A stretch of 36,007 nucleotides of DNA from Promethearchaeati archaeon (GTDB lineage Archaea; Asgardarchaeota; Heimdallarchaeia; JABLTI01). Shown piece after piece: positions 2,393 through 19,488 of the stretch. Location of the stretch: assembly GCA_034660795.1 (NCBI GenBank), contig JAYEJY010000290.1, forward strand, positions 1-36,007, in the 5' to 3' direction. The stretch's first letter is position 1; the number at the start of each line of letters is the position of its first letter. The notes beneath the pieces were generated by a model. It was not told the DNA's origin, ran no database searches, and worked only from the letters and a program-made list of their open reading frames with translations. Made by a program: the position numbers and the translations under genes.

Positions 2393-3283
2393 CATCTGAA
2401 CCTCAAACACAAGAAAAGTCTAGTTCGGAGAAACCTTTACGCAGCAGAGTAAGATTTTTGCCACGAAATCCATTATTAGAATTCCGTGAACTCGGTGAAC
2501 TTATTCGGTATGAATTCAAACGTATAATTTTTAGCCAAAAATTTTTCATTGCTTTATCATTAATTCTCTTACCGGCTATTTTATACCTTGATTCAATAGC
2601 AAGTCAAGTAGAAGTAATTCTCTTAGATATTGGTAAAGAAAATTTCATGAAAAGAGGTTCAGCAGGATTTGTTATTCTTGGCCAGTTTTTAATGCAAATG
2701 ATTGCGATAATGTTAACTCTAGATAGTTATGGAAAAAGTGGAAATGAAAGCCTAAAACGATATTTTGCTATGCCCATTAGAAAAAGTAATGTTTTTTTTT
2801 GCACGAATGATAATCATTTGTCTTGGGACAACAATAACCGGAATATTAGCGATTCTAATTTTCACATTAATAATGTGGATTTGGACTGGTGTAGGCTTGA
2901 CCTTCCTTTTGATTTTAAAATCATTTCTCTTGACTTTTTGTGGCGCATTTCTAGCAATTACGATAACCACATTCTTTATCTTATTTGCTCAATCTTTGAA
3001 TATTTCCAGTTCACTTGCTATTGTTCCGACACTTTTCCTCTTTTATATTCTCCCCTTCGTTGTCTATTTTACTGCACAATTTAATTATGTAAATGCTTCA
3101 TTACAAGAATTAACTTTTATGAGACAATTAGCAGTCATGACTGACTTTTTGATACAACCACCAGATGGTTTACAAGAAATTTTAAATCAAAGTGCTATGA
3201 AAAAAGCATGGGCTATTACAATGGGAACAAGCGGTGGAAGTGAGTTAATAGCTTTCATATTCTTTATACAAATTGAAAAATAA
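2389..3283 (+). pseudogene. ABC-2-type transporter permease with the reading frame broken at a T9 run
   Basis: Two overlapping ORFs (2389..3084 and 2765..3283) each look membrane-protein-like on only one side of the T9 run at 2792..2800. Before the run the frame reads ...YFAMPIRKSNVFF. After it the other frame reads ARMIIICLGTTITGILAILIF... with several more TM helices. Removing one T joins them into one ~297-aa multi-TM protein. Confidence 0.7.
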
Positions 3284-3316
3284 AAAAATAGAAAAAAAGG
3301 AAAGGAAATAATTTCC

Positions 3317-4669
3317 TTATATTTTTGGTTTTATGAAATTTGTTTCCATTAGTTTCTTGGTAAGATCACGAGAGTACTTAATGCGTTCTTCTGCTTTCTT
3401 GTACAATTCGTCTTCTTCCATTTCTTTACGAGCAATACCTTGCTCTATAGCTTTCATACCAACTCGTGTTGCTTCTAATGGATAGAGTTCCCATTCGTCC
3501 ATATTTGGAATAATATAGTCTTCTTTCAAGCCTTTCTTTTCAGCGATTTCAGCTAGTGCTTTTGCTGCTGCAATACACATTTCATCGGTGATTGTTTTAG
3601 CTTGGACATCTAAAGCACCACGGAAGATACCTGGGAATCCTAGACTATTATTTACTTGATTTGGGAAATCACTTCTACCTGTCCCGACAATTCGAGCACC
3701 GGCTTCTTTAGCATCCCATGGCCAAATCTCTGGTAATGGATTAGCACAAGCATAGACAATAGCATCGTCAGCCATTTTTTCAATCCATTTTTTCTTAATG
3801 GTACCAGGTTCTGATTTAGAAGCTGCAATAATAATATCTGCACCCTTTGTTGCATTACCGAAATCACCAGTAACACCTTCACCATTGGTTTTCTGCGCTA
3901 AATCGTATTTGAAGGGATCCTTATTTTCAAGTTTTTTAATATCCGGTCGATCTTTATAGAGGACTCCAGTGGAATCACACATTATAATATTCTTAGGATC
4001 AGCGCCTGCAGCAATTAGCATGTAAGCTGTTCGAGTGTTTGCAGAGCCCACACCAAGCATCGCAATTTTTGCTGTATCAAGTTCTTTTCCAACACATTTC
4101 AAACCGCCGAAAACACCGGCTAAGATTACAGCTGCGGTTCCTTGAGCATCATCATGCCAAACTGGTATGTCCATTTCTTCTCGTAAGGTTTCGAGGACAG
4201 TGTAACATTTTGGCTTAGAAATATCTTCTAAATTAATGCCTCCGAAAGATGGTTGGAGGAGTTTGACTGTTTCAATAATTTCATCTGCGTCTTTAGTATC
4301 AAGACAGATTGGCATTGCATCTACGCCACCAAGATATTTGAATAAAAGGCTTTTACCTTCCATAACAGGCATAGCTGCTTCCGGACCAATATCCCCTAAA
4401 CCTAAAACACGAGTGCCATCAGAGACAACAGCAACAGTATTTGCTTTATTTGTGTGTTTGAAAACTTCTTCTTTATTTTTGGCAATTGCTCTACAAGGTT
4501 CAGCAACACCTGGAGTATACCAAATGCCAAAAGCATCGAAATCCCAAATGGAACATTTAGGAACAGTTTGAATTTTCCCCTGATAATAAGGATGAAGTTT
4601 CATTGCCTCTTTAGCAGGTTTTTTTGCTTTCGCGAGTAATTCTTCTTTAGTAAGTTTCTCTTTCGTCAT
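3317..4669 (-). CDS. NAD(P)-dependent malic enzyme (oxaloacetate-decarboxylating malate dehydrogenase)
   Basis: 450 aa. Characteristic block YTPGVAEPCRAIAKN...NTVAVVSDGTRVLGLGDIGPEAAMPVMEGKSLLFKYLGGVDAMPICLD, and the dinucleotide-binding region IAMLGVGSAN, as in short archaeal/bacterial malic enzymes. Confidence 0.85.
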   Translation of the reverse strand: MTKEKLTKEELLAKAKKPAKEAMKLHPYYQGKIQTVPKCSIWDFDAFGIWYTPGVAEPCRAIAKNKEEVFKHTNKANTVAVVSDGTRVLGLGDIGPEAAMPVMEGKSLLFKYLGGVDAMPICLDTKDADEIIETVKLLQPSFGGINLEDISKPKCYTVLETLREEMDIPVWHDDAQGTAAVILAGVFGGLKCVGKELDTAKIAMLGVGSANTRTAYMLIAAGADPKNIIMCDSTGVLYKDRPDIKKLENKDPFKYDLAQKTNGEGVTGDFGNATKGADIIIAASKSEPGTIKKKWIEKMADDAIVYACANPLPEIWPWDAKEAGARIVGTGRSDFPNQVNNSLGFPGIFRGALDVQAKTITDEMCIAAAKALAEIAEKKGLKEDYIIPNMDEWELYPLEATRVGMKAIEQGIARKEMEEDELYKKAEERIKYSRDLTKKLMETNFIKPKI

Positions 4670-4860
4670 AGTGCCACTTCTTACTATTAAGTATCTTTAA
4701 GAATAATATACTAGGTATATAAATTATTTTAAGCTTTTTCTGTTAATTTTACTTCGTGGCTAGTAAAAAATCTAAGTTATTTTTTTGCTATATCAAAAAA
4801 AGAGAAATACTTAAAATTAGCCTTATAGTCAAAAACTACTTAACCAGCAACATAATTGTT

Positions 4861-5008
4861 GTCGAGGTAGCCTAGCCTGGTTACGGATGACTCTGCTAGG
4901 GTATGCGCCAGAATGGGCGCCTGACTCATAATCAAATCAAAAAATCAATAGGGCCAGATTTGAGGAGTCATCAGGAGGTCGCGGGATCAAAGCCCGCCCT
5001 CGACACCA
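4861..5008 (+). tRNA. tRNA(CAT), elongator-type (Met or Ile2), with two introns and encoded CCA
   Basis: Acceptor GTCGAGG/CCTCGAC; discriminator A + CCA (5005..5008). D-stem GCCT (4870..4873)/GGGC (4915..4918). Anticodon stem CCTGA (4920..4924)/TCAGG (4971..4975), loop CTCATA+A, anticodon CAT at 4927..4929. T-arm GCGGG-ATCAAAG-CCCGC. Intron 1 is ~4883..4913 in the D-loop: 4-bp helix CTGG/CCAG flanked by 3-nt bulges TTA and AAT. Intron 2 is 4931..4969 at canonical 37/38: 7-bp inner helix TCAAATC/GATTTGA with 3-nt bulges. G1:C72 and the lack of GGG/CCC in the anticodon stem argue against an initiator. Confidence 0.85.
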
Positions 5009-5089
5009 ATCTTATATCCTTTTTTTGAATTTTATATGGTAGCAAATTATGATTAGTATTAAAAAAGAAAAAAAGAAGTAAAGATAAGG

Positions 5090-6730
5090 TTACTTCTTTT
5101 CATTTTCTAAAAATGGACAGGTATATTCTTGGGGAGGATAAAATCTTTCCTTGATGCTTCTTGCTGAAACCCATCGAATTAAATTAAGATAGCTGCCCGC
5201 TTTGTCATTAGTTCCGCTTTTTCGTGAACCTCCAAAAGGCTGTTGATTAACAACTGCACCTGTTGGTTTTACATTAATATAGAAATTACCCGCAGCATGG
5301 CGTAAAATTTTTGATGCAATGGAAATTGCTTTTCTGTCTTCAGCGAAAATTGATCCAGTAAGGGCATATTTAGTACTTTTATCCACCAAGTGTAATGTCT
5401 CAATAAATTTATTATCTTCATATAAGTAAATTGAGAGGACAGGACCAAATATCTCTTCGACCATAGTTTTAAAATCAGGTTTCTTTGCTAAAATTACGGT
5501 GGGATCTATAAAATAGCCTTTACTATCATCAGCATTTCCCCCAATAATAACATCAGCTTCATTAGATTCTTTTGAATAATCAATATATTCAGTTATTGAC
5601 TCAAACGCTTTTTTATCTATGATTGCATTTACATAATTTGAGAAATCATCTGGTTCACCTATTTTTATTCCCTCAATATCATCTTCCAGACATTTTTTGA
5701 TTTGAGGCCAAAGTGATTTAGGTGCATAAATTCTGGAAGCTGCAGAACATTTTTGTCCTTGGTATTCGAAAGCCCCTCGAGTTAAACTTGCTAAAACGCC
5801 ACTGAGATCTGCTGATTTATGAATGAATATGAAATCCTTCCCACCTGTTTCTCCCACAAGGCGAGGATATTGATTATATTTATGGATGTTTTCGCCAACC
5901 ACTTTCCACATGTATTCAAATGTCCTGGTACTTCCGGTAAAATGTATTCCCCCAAGGTCCGGATGTTTTAGAACATGTTTTCCTACAACAGAACCATGTC
6001 CTGGTAAAAAGTTAATTACGCCTTTTGGTAATCCTGCTCTAATAAATAATTTCATTAATTTATAAGCTACATACAAAACACTTGTTGCTGGTTTCCAAAC
6101 AACTACATTACCCATGAGTGCTGGCGCAGTGGGAAGATTCCCCATAATTGATACAAAATTGAAAGGCGTTACAGCAAAAACAAAGCCATCTAATGGTCTA
6201 TACTCTAATCTATTAAATGCCGTATGAGGACTATATGGTTGATTATTATAGATCTGATACATATAATAGGTATTAAATCGTAAAAAGTCAATTAATTCAC
6301 ACGCACTATCAATTTCAGCTTGATGGGGATTTTTACTTAGATTAAGTATCGTTGCTGCATTAATTTTCATTCTATAGGGGTCTGCTAGTAATTCAGCCAT
6401 TTTCAGAAAAATTGCTGCTCGTTCATCCCAATTATATTTTATCCAATCCTTTTTAGTTTCTAATGCGTTTTCAATTGCTTGTTTAATCTGTTTTTCTTGG
6501 GCTAATGAAGCTTTTCCAAGAATTAACTCATGATCATGTGGTGCGGTTATATTGATTTGTTCATCTGTATAAATCTCCTCACCGCCTATGATTAATGGTA
6601 TTTCAATGGGATCTGCTTTCTTAATTTTTTCCAATTCTTCCTTCAATGCTTTTCTTTCCCATGAACCAGGGGCATAATCATGAGTGGGTTCATTTTTCGG
6701 TTCCTCAATTTTGAATCGTCCAAAAGACAA
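5090..6730 (-). CDS. L-glutamate gamma-semialdehyde (1-pyrroline-5-carboxylate) dehydrogenase, ALDH superfamily
   Basis: 546 aa. ALDH motifs VGETGGKDF and FEYQGQKCSAASR (catalytic Cys). The N-terminal region FKIEEPKNEPTHDYAPGSWERKALKEEL...IPLIIGGEE is typical of stand-alone P5C dehydrogenases. Confidence 0.8.
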   Translation of the reverse strand: MSFGRFKIEEPKNEPTHDYAPGSWERKALKEELEKIKKADPIEIPLIIGGEEIYTDEQINITAPHDHELILGKASLAQEKQIKQAIENALETKKDWIKYNWDERAAIFLKMAELLADPYRMKINAATILNLSKNPHQAEIDSACELIDFLRFNTYYMYQIYNNQPYSPHTAFNRLEYRPLDGFVFAVTPFNFVSIMGNLPTAPALMGNVVVWKPATSVLYVAYKLMKLFIRAGLPKGVINFLPGHGSVVGKHVLKHPDLGGIHFTGSTRTFEYMWKVVGENIHKYNQYPRLVGETGGKDFIFIHKSADLSGVLASLTRGAFEYQGQKCSAASRIYAPKSLWPQIKKCLEDDIEGIKIGEPDDFSNYVNAIIDKKAFESITEYIDYSKESNEADVIIGGNADDSKGYFIDPTVILAKKPDFKTMVEEIFGPVLSIYLYEDNKFIETLHLVDKSTKYALTGSIFAEDRKAISIASKILRHAAGNFYINVKPTGAVVNQQPFGGSRKSGTNDKAGSYLNLIRWVSARSIKERFYPPQEYTCPFLENEKK

Positions 6731-13393: not shown

Positions 13394-15259
13394 CTATTTT
13401 TTACATTGTTCCTCTAATTCATCTTCATTGTCTCGTTCAACCCAAGAAAATTTTCTTTCCAAAGCTTTAGTATAATAATTACGCCAATCATAGTCTACTT
13501 CTTGTCCCCATTCATAATAGACTCGAGGATCTATGTATGATTTTAAGCTAGTATTAAGATTCCATGTTTTTGTTTGTTTAGCCATTCGTTCTTTTGCTTT
13601 TACTTTTTCCATGTTAAGATTTGCTTTGTAAAGACGCTCTTTTGCTCTCCCTAATATTTCACGTGCTTTTTTTAATTGTCTTTTCGCGGTATCAATTCTT
13701 TTATTTGCTGTTTCCACTCGTTTTTTCTTTCTTTTTACACGCTTTTTTGCACGTTCAATTTCTTTTTCTAAGTTTTCTTTTTCCTCTTCATTTGTTTCTT
13801 TTTCATAAGCAGTTTTTAATTCCTTTAATTCCTTCTTTTCTTTTTTTAACACTTGCATTCTTTCTTTCTTCATTTCTTTTCGTTCTGCAAGTTTTTGTTT
13901 AACTTCTTCTAACCGATCAATTCTTTTTTGTTTATAAGCAACAGCTTTATCAATACGTTCTTGCGCTCGGTCTCTTCTATCTTTAAATCGTTCTAATCTA
14001 TCATCCCAATTTTTCGGTTCCTGTTTAACATGATTACAAATGATTGCTGCCTCTCTATTAGCTAGAGTTGCTGCTTCTTTTTTTAAGAAATCGGGATCAT
14101 CTTTATCAACATCATCATTCTCGAGATATTCTTTAACTGCTTGGGTAGCATGGAAAGTTCGGAACATCTTCGCTGTTAATCCTTCCATCTTTTCTCCCAA
14201 AAAATCGTTGACGTGTTTGCTTCCGATGTTGTTAAATATTTGCGGTTTTTCTGTTCCTCTTTTTTCCGCTTCTTTCATTAATTCTTTTAAAACTGATAAA
14301 ACAGGTTTTGGCAATGTTGCCTCTTTATTCCATTCTACATAATCTTTTCCTCTAAAATTAAACCGCACTTTTTCGCCATTTATGGTCACATGTTCAGGTC
14401 GAAGGGTAGTTGCCCCGACGGTGTCTGCTTCATCATCATCTTTTTCATCTCCAACCCTTAGATTAAGTCTATCAATAATATAACAAGCTGTTGCTATTTT
14501 TTGTATTTCTTTATCATCACTTTTTATTCCCTTCATTATCTCTTTTCGTATTCTTGATAGATGATCTGCGATGCGATTTGCTTCATCGAATTTTTCTCGT
14601 TCCCGATCTTGTTTAATTGGCGTATTATCAGATAACCAGACATATTTTATTTTACCGGAAAGCTTATCTTTCCATTTTGCCACCCATAAACAATCCGGTT
14701 CCCACACAATATCTTTCCAATTTCCTTCTGGTATCGGGGCATCTGGACTAAGGTTTAAAATAACATCTTCTATTGACGGTCCTTCCTTCCATTTTCCTCG
14801 TAGCGGATGTTTTCCTCGTCCCATAAATATGCTACTAGGTTCAGCAGTATAATTTTGAATTTCTGCTTTTTTACCATTTAAGAGAGCGGTTCCGTAATAT
14901 TCCTTCTTTTTCTCTCTTTCTTCCTTCCTTTGTTCACGGGCTTTCTTCTTCTCTTCTTTGGTCATTTGTTCTTTTTTCTTTCTCTCAGCTTCCACAAAAT
15001 CCATAACTGGGGAGAAATCAACATCTTCATCTGTTAGAGAGTCATACCCTAAAGCTTCCGCAAAATCTTCGAAAAAATTCTCACAGAAAACTTCATCCTC
15101 GACATATTGGGTCGATAGTTTTTTCACCCATGCAATAGCCATTTGTTCCTGTTTAGGAGTAAGTTTGACTTTTTCACCTTTAATGTAAATGTGTAATTCG
15201 TGATACGGAGTTTCAACAAAATTGATGCCATTGTGATGTAACTTTTTTATATGCGCCAA
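13394..15259 (-). CDS. Eukaryote-type DNA topoisomerase IB (long form with coiled-coil linker)
   Basis: 621 aa. Catalytic pentad contexts align with human Topo I as I recall it: GATTLRPEHV (Arg), FRGKDYVEW (Lys), TAKMFRTFHAT (Arg), AIICNH (His), SLKSYIDPR (Tyr codon at 13535..13537). N-terminal core motifs IFMGRGKHPLRGKWK and VWLSDNTPIKQDREREKFD. A ~130-150-aa K/E/R-rich helical linker precedes the Tyr domain. Confidence 0.9.
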   Translation of the reverse strand: MAHIKKLHHNGINFVETPYHELHIYIKGEKVKLTPKQEQMAIAWVKKLSTQYVEDEVFCENFFEDFAEALGYDSLTDEDVDFSPVMDFVEAERKKKEQMTKEEKKKAREQRKEEREKKKEYYGTALLNGKKAEIQNYTAEPSSIFMGRGKHPLRGKWKEGPSIEDVILNLSPDAPIPEGNWKDIVWEPDCLWVAKWKDKLSGKIKYVWLSDNTPIKQDREREKFDEANRIADHLSRIRKEIMKGIKSDDKEIQKIATACYIIDRLNLRVGDEKDDDEADTVGATTLRPEHVTINGEKVRFNFRGKDYVEWNKEATLPKPVLSVLKELMKEAEKRGTEKPQIFNNIGSKHVNDFLGEKMEGLTAKMFRTFHATQAVKEYLENDDVDKDDPDFLKKEAATLANREAAIICNHVKQEPKNWDDRLERFKDRRDRAQERIDKAVAYKQKRIDRLEEVKQKLAERKEMKKERMQVLKKEKKELKELKTAYEKETNEEEKENLEKEIERAKKRVKRKKKRVETANKRIDTAKRQLKKAREILGRAKERLYKANLNMEKVKAKERMAKQTKTWNLNTSLKSYIDPRVYYEWGQEVDYDWRNYYTKALERKFSWVERDNEDELEEQCKK

Positions 15260-16715: not shown

Positions 16716-16763
16716 TTTTGGTTTTTACCTCTTTATTATGTTCACCTAGTTGTTTGAGATGTT

Positions 16764-19190
16764 CTACTCAGCTGTAGTGGCTTTTGAAGGGCTAGTAGAT
16801 CGACCATAGCCTCTACTTACTCGACCACAATCACGACAAATCGTAAATTCTGGTGAAAAAACGATTTGAGCACTTTGGGTATGATCCCATGTTTTTTTCA
16901 CAATATTTAATATCGATTCAGTGGATGGTTTATGTTCTCCTAAGAATATGTGAGTGATAGACCCACTTTCAATCAATGTATTGAATTTACCTTGTTTAGT
17001 AATCCGGTCAACAATATCAATAGGTGCATCTGCTGCGAAGTGGGCACTATTGGTATAATAAATTGAACCATCTTCTATGTCGCCTTTTACATAATGAACT
17101 GAATCGGGATATTCTTGAAGATCTGTTCGGGCTAATTTGTAAGGGGCGCTTTCCCCTGGTGTTTCTTCTAAAGTAATATGAAGGCTGTGTTTCTTTTGGA
17201 GCTGTTTTGCCTTTAAATTCATAGATGCGATAATTCGCAAACCAAGTTTATAGGCTTCCTCACTGTCATGCAGTTGTTCATCAATGAGATATTGAACACA
17301 TTCATTCAATCCAATAATTCCTATTATATAGGTTGCTTTCTCAAGATCAACATATGGCCGTCCGTCTGCTGCTTCCATACCTATTTGCCAGAGTGTGCCA
17401 TTTTCTTCTGACATAAGTTTATAGGCAAAAGCTTTCTTCTGGAGGTGGGCTTGCATGGCAATATCCATTGATTGTCTAATTTGCTCAATAGCTTCTTTGA
17501 TATTGCCTTTACCTGCTCTGTAAGCTGCTTGGGGAAGATTAATGCTTACATTTTGAAAACCACAATATCTCATACTTTCCGGATGTTCTAGCATATAGGT
17601 GTCTGTTATATTGGTTCGTAAGCGACAGCACATTGATAGGTTTACTTCATCACGATCGAATACAAAATATGTTGACCCATTTTCTGAAGCAAGACGACAA
17701 GCCAATTCTAATAATTCGCGTTGCTTAGGGTCTTCAAATGATTCTTCAGTGACATGGAGATCGCATTTCGGAAATGGAAATACTTTGCCTTGGGCATCGC
17801 CTTCCATCCAAACTTCCATGAGCGCTTTAGCAAACAGTTGTGCCTCTTCCTCATAATCGGCATAAGTTTTGCCAGTATATTTTCCACCAGGCCCAATAGC
17901 TGGTATATCTCGTAGATAGGAGGGTATTCCGAGGTGAATATTAAAATCTACGAAAAGGGCTTGCCCACCTCGAGAGAAAGCATTCTGACTACCCGAAAAG
18001 ATCAAGCGTTGGGCTTCTTGCTTAATTTCTTCATACGGTACGCCTACAAAATAGGGAGCGTAGAAGATATTGAGATAAGCTAATCCAAGAGCACCAGCAT
18101 AATACGCTTGCATGGAAGCAAGAAAGGTGTTCAAATGACCTGTAAGTGTGGCAGCATGCTTAGCTGGTTTTGAAATAGTTGAAAGATTAAGTAAGTCTAA
18201 ACCGTATTTCTTGATGTATTCAAGACTATGGGCAGAACAATAAACACGAACAGGGAATCCTAAGTCATGTAAATAGATTCGCCCTTTTCGATGAGCATTG
18301 GCTACTTCTTCATCGAAAATTTCTTGTAATGCGAATTTCTTTAGGATAGATTCAGCAATAGCCAAATTAACTGCTTCTGGATTATTTGCTACAACGTTAC
18401 TATTTTCATTGCTTTTTGATAATATTAATTGTTTCAGGTCATATACAGGCATACCTAGGGATTTCTGTTGGGTCAGTTTCTTATCATATCCCCGAACAAA
18501 TAATTCGTTATCAACAAGGCTTCGAATTAAATCAACAGAAATCACATCAATTCCTGAAGCAAAAACCTTGCGTTCAACTTCCGCTGCAATTGCTTCCGCA
18601 TCAATTTTAGGTAAATCAGCTTCCCGCATTAGTGCTTTGGTTATTTTACTTTTGTCCCAATCCATGATTTCTTCTTGAGTGTCTCCAGAAACCATAAGTA
18701 GTAATTCGGTGGAATCTTGTTGTTTTACATCTACTTCTTTTACAACACGAAGTTTATCGAGTTCTCGTTCAAAGGATGCTAAATCAGTGAAACGTCTATA
18801 AACAGATGCAAATCTAATATAAGCTACTTCATCCAATTCTTTGAGTTTCTCCATAACAAGTTCGCCTATAATTGAAGCTTCAATTTCGATTTCATCCATT
18901 TGTCGAAGTTCGCTTTCGATTTCATCAACCATTTCATCAATTTCTTCAAGGCTAACAGGTCGTTTTTCGCATGCCTTAATAATGCCTTTTTTAACTTTCT
19001 CTCTGTCAAAGGGTTCTCGACGTTTATCTTTCTTAACAATCGTTAGTTTTACATCTTCCACTCGTTCATAAGTAGTGAATCTTTTGTGACATTGTAAGCA
19101 TTCTCGGCGGCGGCGATTAACTTTCATATCATGTGAGTCACGTGTATCGATTACTCGAGTATTAGGTGATTGACAATAGGGACATTTCAT
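16764..19190 (-). CDS. nrdD: Class III (anaerobic) ribonucleoside-triphosphate reductase large polypeptide with N-terminal NrdR-like zinc ribbon + ATP-cone
   Basis: The NrdD body carries [27 protein letters not shown] and YYTNSAHF, and ends at FTICRDCG (first CxxC only). The N-terminal ~150 aa ([58 protein letters not shown]) match NrdR. The start is placed at the first ATG (19190, GGTGA upstream); the track ORF extends to a GTG at 19235. Confidence 0.85.
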   Translation of the reverse strand: [808 protein letters not shown]

Positions 19191-19327
19191 TTTTCTGTTC
19201 ACCAGATTATATGGATCTAGGGTTTTATGCACCACTAGCGGGATTTCTACCCAAATTGTTATGTCACAGAGTCATCAAACAGCAATCATTTTGGGAGTAT
19301 ATAAATGGGAAAAGCCCTTTTAAATAT

Positions 19328-19373
19328 ACCACTCCTCGTGGTTTGATGTGCCCCCGTACACAACATATTGTGG
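19328..19373 (-). promoter_or_regulatory. Candidate NrdR-box pair upstream of the nrd operon
   Basis: ACACAACATATTGTGG (19358..19373) matches the remembered NrdR-box consensus acaCwAtATaTwGtgt at 14 of 16 positions. A second inverted repeat, ACCAC-TCCTC-GTGGT (19328..19342), is centred ~30-31 bp away but lacks the AT-rich core. TATA-like TTTTAAATATA and TATATAAAT lie adjacent, on the gene-proximal side. Confidence 0.35.
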
Positions 19374-19488
19374 GTAAATATTACATAAATCCTTTTGAGT
19401 ATTTAAAACTATTGGAGAAAAAAAAAGTGATAAGATAAAAAAAATTGTTAAATAAACCGATGATTTTTGAAAAAAATAAGAAAGAAAA

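Follow-up and report, generated by a model that had tools for sequence, protein, structure and literature searches.

We analyzed a 36,007-nucleotide (nt) stretch of DNA from a Heimdall-type Promethearchaeati archaeon (contig JAYEJY010000290.1; the whole stretch is called the window here), concentrating on a minus-strand open reading frame (ORF) that is uninterrupted from either GTG 19235 or ATG 19190 to a TAG stop codon at 16764..16766. Because all homologues begin at MKCPYC, ATG 19190 is the real start, and the product is 808 amino acids (aa) long. According to the original prediction, which was made from the sequence alone, an NrdR-like repressor module (a zinc ribbon plus an ATP-cone) is fused here in frame to NrdD, the class III ribonucleotide reductase (RNR), and profile searches bear this out. 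In Pfam, Zn_ribbon_NrdR (PF22811) matches residues 1 to 42 over the entire model (positions 1 to 42 of 42; 66 to 69 bits; cutoff, 27.2), two stretches match the ATP-cone (PF03477), the better one at residues 50 to 136, and NRDD (PF13597) follows at residues 262 to 793 (380.5 bits; profile positions 1 to 518 of 562). The NrdD model TIGR02487 is also matched above its cutoff (358.7 bits; cutoff, 326.35; positions 1 to 539 of 581).

The NCBIfam NrdR equivalog TIGR00244 is covered end to end by the N-terminal module (positions 1 to 147 of 147), scoring 198.4 bits with the whole protein and 203.9 bits with residues 1 to 170 (cutoff, 124.65 bits), the segment for which a comparison of NrdR with the generic ATP-cone model had been proposed. 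In a PDB search, residues 1 to 147 aligned without gaps to crystal structures of Escherichia coli NrdR (9FZF and others; E = 5e-41), so that the NrdR motifs given in the original prediction are accurate, and also matched the NrdR of Streptomyces coelicolor (7P37; E = 5e-32). Because the equivalog is matched at full length and the PDB alignment is gapless, the N-terminus reads as a complete NrdR, and a generic ATP-cone is excluded. An exhaustive search of 1.8 billion representatives returned thousands of free NrdRs (∼150 aa) with 50 to 61% identity to the module. Free bacterial NrdRs (E. coli, 9FZF; S. coelicolor, 7P37 and 7P3F) have the same two domains in the same order, over 147 of 147 profile positions. 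At the level of sequence, the module showed every NrdR feature tested for except a free-standing size: known NrdRs are separate proteins of 140 to 220 residues, whereas in the window, NrdR forms the N-terminal part of an 808-aa enzyme.

In the S. coelicolor NrdR-DNA structure, R12, R26 to R29, and R37 contact phosphates, and D15 and R17 confer base specificity; an R17A mutation abolishes DNA binding. Every one of these DNA-contact residues is found at the matching position in the window protein, and both the DNA contacts (R12, D15, R17, the RRRR run, and R37) and the nucleotide contacts are the same as in free bacterial NrdR. Across 25 diverse fusion proteins, the four cysteines of the two CxxC motifs (C3-x2-C6 and C31-x2-C34) are invariant, as are R17, R27 to R29, and R37; the R12 position is K in most relatives, and the D15 position is D or E. 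Mean pairwise identity among the 25 fusions is 65% in the zinc ribbon (13 of 42 columns invariant) versus 68% in the catalytic core; by this measure, the ribbon is constrained as strongly as the core. In the ATP-cone, the inner-site and outer-site nucleotide contacts of S. coelicolor NrdR (K50, R51, E56, K62, and Y128) have conserved equivalents, identified by alignment only, in K53, K54, E59, K65, and Y131, with K53 and K65 invariant in the 25 fusions. All domains of the fusion protein are under purifying selection.

The rest of the protein had been described as an ordinary NrdD body, and this description did not hold: the first ATP-cone of NrdD is replaced, and the glycyl-radical tail is on a separate gene. 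In BLASTP, the window protein and the unfused NrdD P0113 share 59% identity over 762 residues and are colinear starting at the cone. The NrdR-type cone (residues 42 to 147) aligns exactly onto the first cone of P0113, after which the linker and a second cone-like segment are in register. Judged by this alignment, NrdD's own first ATP-cone is absent and the NrdR module stands in for the regulatory cone. The second cone-like segment is colinear with the matching segment of unfused relatives and has the sequence V-S-G/T-x-T in place of the K-R-x-G phosphate-binding motif; the NrdR-type cone is therefore the only intact nucleotide sensor in the protein. In an AlphaFold2 model (25 input sequences; mean pLDDT, 74.7), the NrdR module (ribbon and cone; pLDDT of about 66 to 83) and the NrdD core fold separately, the core being well predicted, and the C-terminus is disordered. 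Residues 146 to 176, with a pLDDT of 22 to 45, form a tether of ∼30 residues.

For the promoter, we used the 16-bp bacterial NrdR box consensus acaCwAtATaTwGtgt and the search pattern CACWANATNTWGTG. With one mismatch allowed, this pattern has a single match in the 36-kb window, against 0.34 expected, and the match, at 19359..19372, is perfect. It lies within box 1 (Table 1), which is conserved in relatives and is the only 16-mer of the window to score at least 13 of 16; it falls within the ∼250-bp region upstream of the fusion gene. The degenerate box 2 retains the specificity positions C4, A6, T11, and G13, which are invariant in all five Heimdall-group promoters (5/5). Canonical NrdR boxes are paired three helical turns apart, with a spacer of 15 to 16 bp (NrdR literature), and the spacing of boxes 1 and 2 matches this. 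The alignment of Heimdall-group promoters shows three invariant blocks and no others, namely, the TATA box, box 1, and box 2; conservation stops just past box 2. No other regulon members were apparent, as the few background box matches each lack a partner box.

The same arrangement recurs in the other fused loci. Among 20 distinct archaeal loci with the single fused ORF (window counted), boxes scoring at least 13 of 16 occur at 3.2 per kb within 300 bp upstream versus 0.016 per kb elsewhere, a difference of about 200-fold. Nineteen such upstream boxes were observed, compared with a mean of 0.32 in shuffles, and at least one is present in 14 of the 20 loci. The distance between boxes peaks at 31 to 33 bp. 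This is the operator type of free bacterial NrdR, which uses paired 16-bp palindromic boxes ∼31 to 32 bp apart on an RNR promoter.

The boxes of the fusion gene are set relative to an archaeal TATA box, whereas bacterial NrdR operators are set relative to −35 and −10 elements. In 8 of 18 fused loci (the window included), representing at least three lineages, a strict TTTAWAWA starts 33 to 34 bp ahead of the upstream box; about 0.3 loci would be expected by chance (a post hoc statistic). Archaeal transcription initiates about 25 to 30 bp downstream of the TATA box, and a start near 19377, at the 5′ edge of box 1, is predicted for this reason. The box pair would then extend from about +1 to +50, where archaeal repressors typically bind. 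The predicted 5′ leader of about 185 nt (19191..19357 region) is unconserved among relatives. An Rfam scan of the leader and gene gave only two sub-threshold microRNA-family matches, on the opposite strand in coding regions and far below gathering scores, and therefore no riboswitch. A scan for sigma-70 promoters and intrinsic terminators returned counts at chance level and was set aside as unsuited to an archaeon.

Table 1. Coordinates of the fusion gene, its domains, its promoter elements, and the downstream genes in the window
Feature	Position	Strand	Details
Archaeal TATA box	19400..19407	-	TTTAAATA; starts 34 bp upstream of box 1; invariant in Heimdall-group alignment
NrdR box 1	19358..19373	.	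CCACAATATGTTGTGT, palindromic; 14/16 consensus positions
Degenerate NrdR box 2	19326..19341	.	CCACGAGGAGTGGTAT; starts 32 bp after box 1, 16-bp spacer
NrdR zinc ribbon, residues 1-42	19065..19190	-	C3, C6, C31, C34; R12, D15, R17, R26-R29, R37
NrdR-type ATP-cone, residues 50-147	18750..19043	-	TIGR00244 1-147/147; at the position of NrdD's first regulatory ATP-cone
Flexible linker, residues 148-175	18666..18749	-	Low pLDDT; pairwise identity 41%
Second, degenerate ATP-cone-like segment, residues 176-260	18411..18665	-	Belongs to this NrdD subfamily itself; second of the two Pfam ATP-cone matches
Class III RNR catalytic core, residues 261-808 and stop codon	16764..18410	-	PF13597, TIGR02487
Glycyl-radical tail gene, 81 aa	16470..16715	-	Second CxxC of zinc site (CPYC) and radical motif RVVGY; own ATG and AAGAGG ribosome-binding site
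Thioredoxin/glutaredoxin-like protein, 88 aa	16097..16363	-	Pfam Thioredoxin_3 and Glutaredoxin; weak NCBIfam redox_disulf_1 and GlrX
NrdG-type radical-SAM activase, 251 aa	15358..16113	-	TIGR02495 NrdG2, 189.2 bits (cutoff 131.15); Radical_SAM match

The ORF at 16764-19235 encodes an incomplete NrdD, as its glycyl-radical end is encoded by the next gene. The catalytic core stops 20 residues past the first CxxC (C785 and C788; nt 16827..16838), whose two cysteines are invariant; the second CxxC and the RVVGY motif are on the 81-aa tail gene. The product of the latter matches positions 522 to 560 of 562 in the NRDD profile and 541 to 579 of 581 in TIGR02487. The RVxGY motif and the full four-cysteine zinc site, which were looked for in a single NrdD chain, are not on the large ORF; the two gene products supply them only together. 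Between the two genes (junction region 16716..16838) lie 16 codons that include TAG, TAG, and TAA, followed by the AAGAGG motif. A tail gene of 52 to 99 aa is present in 17 of the 18 fused loci examined, and each of these genes has a Shine-Dalgarno motif of its own; the frames differ among loci, and the gap ranges from −8 to +518 nt. Some fused proteins (about 870 to 900 aa) and the bacterial relatives are unsplit at the C-terminus. Readthrough, frameshifting, and an alternative genetic code at the break are ruled out by the three stop codons of two kinds and by the relatives, in which the tail is in other frames, with 4- to 8-nt overlaps or gaps of up to 518 nt, and always has its own Shine-Dalgarno motif and ATG.

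The zinc site would thus have to be assembled from two chains contributing two cysteines each. We found no description of a split NrdD in the literature searched in full text (subscription-only papers and RNRdb were outside our reach). The nearest parallels are the split class II RNR NrdJa/NrdJb, in which a catalytic chain is accompanied by a small C-terminal zinc-finger chain (PMC4520616), and GrcA/YfiD, a small free-standing spare-part protein of pyruvate formate-lyase that carries a glycyl-radical motif (PMC8683613). In contrast to NrdJa/NrdJb, the break in the window is in a class III RNR and inside the four-cysteine zinc site, leaving two cysteines per chain; unlike GrcA/YfiD, the tail is the only radical domain rather than a backup. 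By loose analogy with GrcA, a replaceable radical subunit for an oxygen-sensitive enzyme is an attractive idea. A separate tail gene is easily overlooked, and such NrdDs could be misscored as truncated.

The catalytic core carries the finger loop L-S-M-C-C-R at residues 518 to 523, with C521, C522, and R523 invariant, and belongs by this motif to the MCCR rather than the MGCR class (classes as in PMC9669993). A gene for a small redoxin lies between the tail gene and nrdG, a position kept in relatives. Because the finger loop has two cysteines, this redoxin is the likely reductant of the M-C-C-R type NrdD, and the combination of loop and redoxin gene suggests a thioredoxin-type reductant in place of, or beside, formate. 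In a Micrarchaeia relative (L003), the operon contains a peroxiredoxin, and genes for a glutaredoxin and for a pyridine-nucleotide disulfide reductase follow a few genes later. In L018, a DPANN relative, an in-frame TGA (4558..4560) occupies the position of the first cysteine of the finger loop (LSA-TGA-CRLK versus LSM-C-CRLR in others), and the reading frame carries on normally past it; possible readings of the TGA are a point error, a codon for selenocysteine, and the mark of a pseudogene. Some fused homologues (P0097, P0102, and P0114; 1323 to 1383 aa) have an intein within the NrdD core (Intein_splicing plus a LAGLIDADG homing-endonuclease domain).

The window is syntenic with Heimdall-type contigs, with glmS upstream of the fusion gene and the tail, redoxin, NrdG, and topoisomerase IB genes downstream. 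The last of these, which encodes a eukaryote-type DNA topoisomerase IB (Topoisom_I_N, Topoisom_I, and Topo_C_assoc; 13394..15259, minus strand), lies directly downstream of nrdG and is in the same place in the Heimdall-type locus L001.

To see how widespread the fusion is, we searched protein clusters and genomes. Zn_ribbon_NrdR, ATP-cone, and NRDD occur together in one protein in 105 of the best 120 protein clusters (90%-identity clusters), with identities to the window protein ranging from 83% down to about 55%. Among the source names of the clusters are Heimdallarchaeota/Asgard (the nearest to the window protein), Aenigmatarchaeota, and Micrarchaeota. A scan of species-representative genomes yielded 80 loci, and ORF analysis of these gave the 20 distinct fused archaeal loci, from independent assemblies, that answer the proposed search for the fusion in related archaea. 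They come from Heimdall-, Nanohalo-, Woese-, Micr-, Nano-, and Parvarchaeota metagenome-assembled genomes (MAGs); lineage statements are approximate, since they rest on MAG labels, which are inconsistent. For example, one locus sequence (L001/L007) is labeled "Bathyarchaeia" in one record while close relatives are labeled Heimdallarchaeota, and the DPANN-like loci L017 and L019 are labeled "uncultured Methanosarcinales." Protein annotation is inconsistent as well: for the same architecture, some proteins of 830 to 880 aa are named "transcriptional regulator NrdR" and others "anaerobic ribonucleoside-triphosphate reductase" (e.g., P0085, P0098, P0106, and P0107).

The closest NrdD relatives outside the archaeal clade are encoded by bacterial nrdR-nrdD operons (L027-L084; 54 to 60% identity). 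Omnitrophota, Planctomycetota (Brocadia and Scalindua included), Elusimicrobiota, and other bacteria have nrdR as a gene of its own (150 to 170 aa) immediately upstream of nrdD, which it abuts or overlaps, often with one in-frame stop codon between them, and the NrdR boxes are upstream of the pair. The bacterial NrdDs, of ∼800 aa, keep the canonical first ATP-cone (V-R-K-R-D-G...), the second cone-like segment, and the complete NRDD profile with the radical tail in one chain. Bacterial tblastn matches over residues 1 to 794 had initially hinted at a fusion in these organisms as well; ORF analysis resolved them into separate nrdR and nrdD genes. Compared with the bacterial operons, the archaeal form is a fusion in which about 110 codons (cone 1) are missing and the C-terminus is usually split.

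An operon with separate adjacent nrdR and nrdD genes, as in these relatives, is the likely source of the fusion. Plain loss of the stop codon is rejected as its origin, as about 110 codons of NrdD cone 1 are also gone; the comparison is consistent with an ancestral nrdR-nrdD operon having lost these codons through an in-frame deletion between its two homologous cones. In a crude neighbor-joining (NJ) tree of the NrdD core, which carries no support values, the fused forms fall in one clade that is sister to the bacterial separate-gene clade. Nested within the fused clade are the unfused L023, L025, and L038 and the 5′-truncated L052. This topology fits one or a few old fusions and later fissions. 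An NJ tree of the 145-aa NrdR module was unresolved, with the fused forms not monophyletic under midpoint rooting (short sequences, no support values). Loci L023 (labeled Berkelbacteria) and L025 (at about 3000-5900 in each) have a separate nrdR and an nrdD in which an unrelated ∼60-aa N-terminal segment takes the place of the canonical first cone; they may be secondary fissions of a fused ancestor. The original prediction had raised a recent fusion of adjacent genes. Adjacency is backed by the abutting genes of the bacterial relatives; recency is not, as the fusion is old and common to Heimdall-type and several DPANN archaea at 55 to 83% identity.

On balance, we favor the view that the fusion enzyme represses its own operon. 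The elements of a trigger enzyme, namely, catalytic determinants, DNA-binding determinants, and an operator, are all present in the sequence, and the DNA-binding function of the NrdR module has probably been retained, as residues, operator, and TATA geometry agree. An ATP/dATP-sensing enzyme that binds its own promoter was one of three readings offered in the original prediction and is the best supported of them, given the conserved contact residues and the box pair within 19300..19400, the fragment that the original prediction had put forward for EMSA. In free NrdR, ATP-loaded forms are unable to bind DNA, and tetramers loaded with dATP and ATP bind two boxes. For the fusion protein, we infer DNA binding, nucleotide dependence, oligomeric state, and an allosteric effect on catalysis by analogy. 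When dATP rises relative to ATP, the NrdR-type cones would load dATP and ATP, and the modules of two NrdD dimers would pair via cones and zinc ribbons into a four-module DNA-binding unit as in NrdR. This unit would clamp both boxes, which follow closely after the TATA box and overlap the predicted start, and binding would shut off the operon encoding the large subunit, the glycyl-radical tail, the redoxin, and the activase.

As the protein has no other intact cone, nucleotide sensing by the NrdR-type cone probably adjusts enzyme activity as well, and rising dATP would probably lower that activity. A model for this is the NrdD of Prevotella copri, which likewise has an N-terminal nucleotide-sensing cone on an NrdD dimer and in which dATP at the cone inhibits activity and promotes tetramers via cone contacts (PMC11226230). 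The fusion cone differs from it in being of the NrdR type (two nucleotides bound, helix-loop-helix C-terminus) and in sitting behind a predicted DNA-binding zinc ribbon. Taken as a whole, the proposal is that one polypeptide would be both the catalytic subunit of an anaerobic RNR and a dATP/ATP-sensing repressor of its own operon, acting via a bacterial-type operator moved to a new position on an archaeal TATA promoter, with a single NrdR-type cone driving activity and transcription from one nucleotide-binding event and an oxygen-labile glycyl-radical domain, supplied in trans as a small separate subunit, completing the shared zinc site. We offer this entire combination tentatively.

Several points weigh against autorepression and the broader proposal. 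Box 2 of the window is weak (8 of 16 consensus positions), and 2 of the 20 fused loci (L018 and L022) are without a convincing box. The TATA-spacing statistic is post hoc, and 5 of its 8 loci are from one clade. The start site is a predicted one, and a second TATA-like element, TTTATATA, is present downstream of box 2 (19298..19305), though it is nonconserved and missing from the Heimdall-group relatives. The AlphaFold2 model was built on 25 sequences only, with the mean pLDDT given above. A tetramer of the NrdR type needs two ∼190-kDa NrdD dimers to meet on DNA, which may be sterically demanding. Lastly, some DPANN archaea have free NrdRs, and such an NrdR elsewhere in the genome could use the boxes.

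This last point, together with the exact placement of the NrdR-type cone at the regulatory cone position of NrdD, where it is the only intact cone, leads to the best-surviving alternative: the NrdR module may have been captured purely as an activity-site cone, with the zinc ribbon serving oligomerization and the boxes being used by a free NrdR elsewhere or persisting as relics of the ancestral operon. Capture of a repressor domain for allosteric control had also been raised in the original prediction and is plausible on these grounds, and NrdR tetramerization is driven by zinc-ribbon pairs. However, pure oligomerization would not require the invariance seen in the phosphate- and base-contact residues of the fusions, including R17, which is essential for binding. 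Across lineages whose intergenic DNA cannot otherwise be aligned, the boxes have been conserved with the right spacing and at a set distance from the TATA box, which argues against relics, and a second nrdR is absent from the window and the flanks of the fused loci. We consider this allosteric-only role unlikely, although it is the alternative to which we give the most weight.

An alternative to autorepression by the intact fusion is that the protein is functionally unfused, with linker cleavage or independently acting parts yielding a free NrdR and an NrdD without a regulatory cone, so that the fusion only secures coexpression. Sequence conservation in the linker (residues 146 to 176) is low and disorder is predicted there, nrdR and nrdD were ancestrally separate, and the nested loci L023 and L025, with separate nrdR and nrdD genes and no cone 1, indicate that a split state is viable. 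Nevertheless, the single ORF has been kept in 20 distinct archaeal loci at 55 to 83% identity, with no conserved internal start or cleavage motif, and a 1:1 ratio of repressor to enzyme would be an odd stoichiometry for a free repressor; we regard this alternative as quite improbable. An artifact of the contig (a missed stop, a frameshift, or a chimeric assembly) is scarcely credible as the cause of the nrdR-nrdD joining: a single-base error could mimic a fusion of abutting genes that are often one in-frame stop apart, as in the bacterial relatives, but the ORF is continuous across the module junction in orthologues from more than 100 protein clusters (the 105 of the best 120) and the 20 archaeal loci, which come from different studies and assemblers, about 110 codons are gone, so that this is no mere stop loss, and all domains are under purifying selection.

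Metabolic enzymes that are also transcriptional repressors of their own pathway genes, in one polypeptide, include PutA and BirA, in which a pathway metabolite governs DNA binding. The fusion has no homology to these trigger enzymes, and the likeness is a functional analogy. In contrast to PutA and BirA, its DNA-binding part is a preexisting dedicated repressor that is still a free protein in most bacteria. We found no description of an NrdR-NrdD fusion in the searchable full-text literature, including the main papers on NrdR, ATP-cones, RNR diversity, and glycyl-radical enzymes (with the same restriction on subscription-only papers and RNRdb as above). The architecture had been called unusual in the original prediction; it is common in public MAG data, and the word applies to the extent that no paper describing the fusion was found. 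The parts and the operator are familiar; what appears to be new within the searchable literature is that they are joined in a single chain, that the regulatory cone is replaced, and that the promoter setting is archaeal.

The ATP-cone is known for two kinds of RNR control, one allosteric and the other, by way of NrdR, transcriptional, with the two always residing in different proteins (NrdR literature). With both roles in one chain and a single intact cone, the fusion is a natural system for asking whether one sensor drives both outputs. It also lets one ask how the tetramer logic of NrdR copes when each module carries a large enzyme. The host of the fusion is an archaeon, and NrdR has been described as rare or absent in archaea; here, the NrdR module and its operator span Heimdall-type (Asgard) and DPANN archaea and are fitted to archaeal promoter geometry. 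This is a clear example of a bacterial repressor-operator pair that functions, or at a minimum is maintained by selection, within archaeal transcription.

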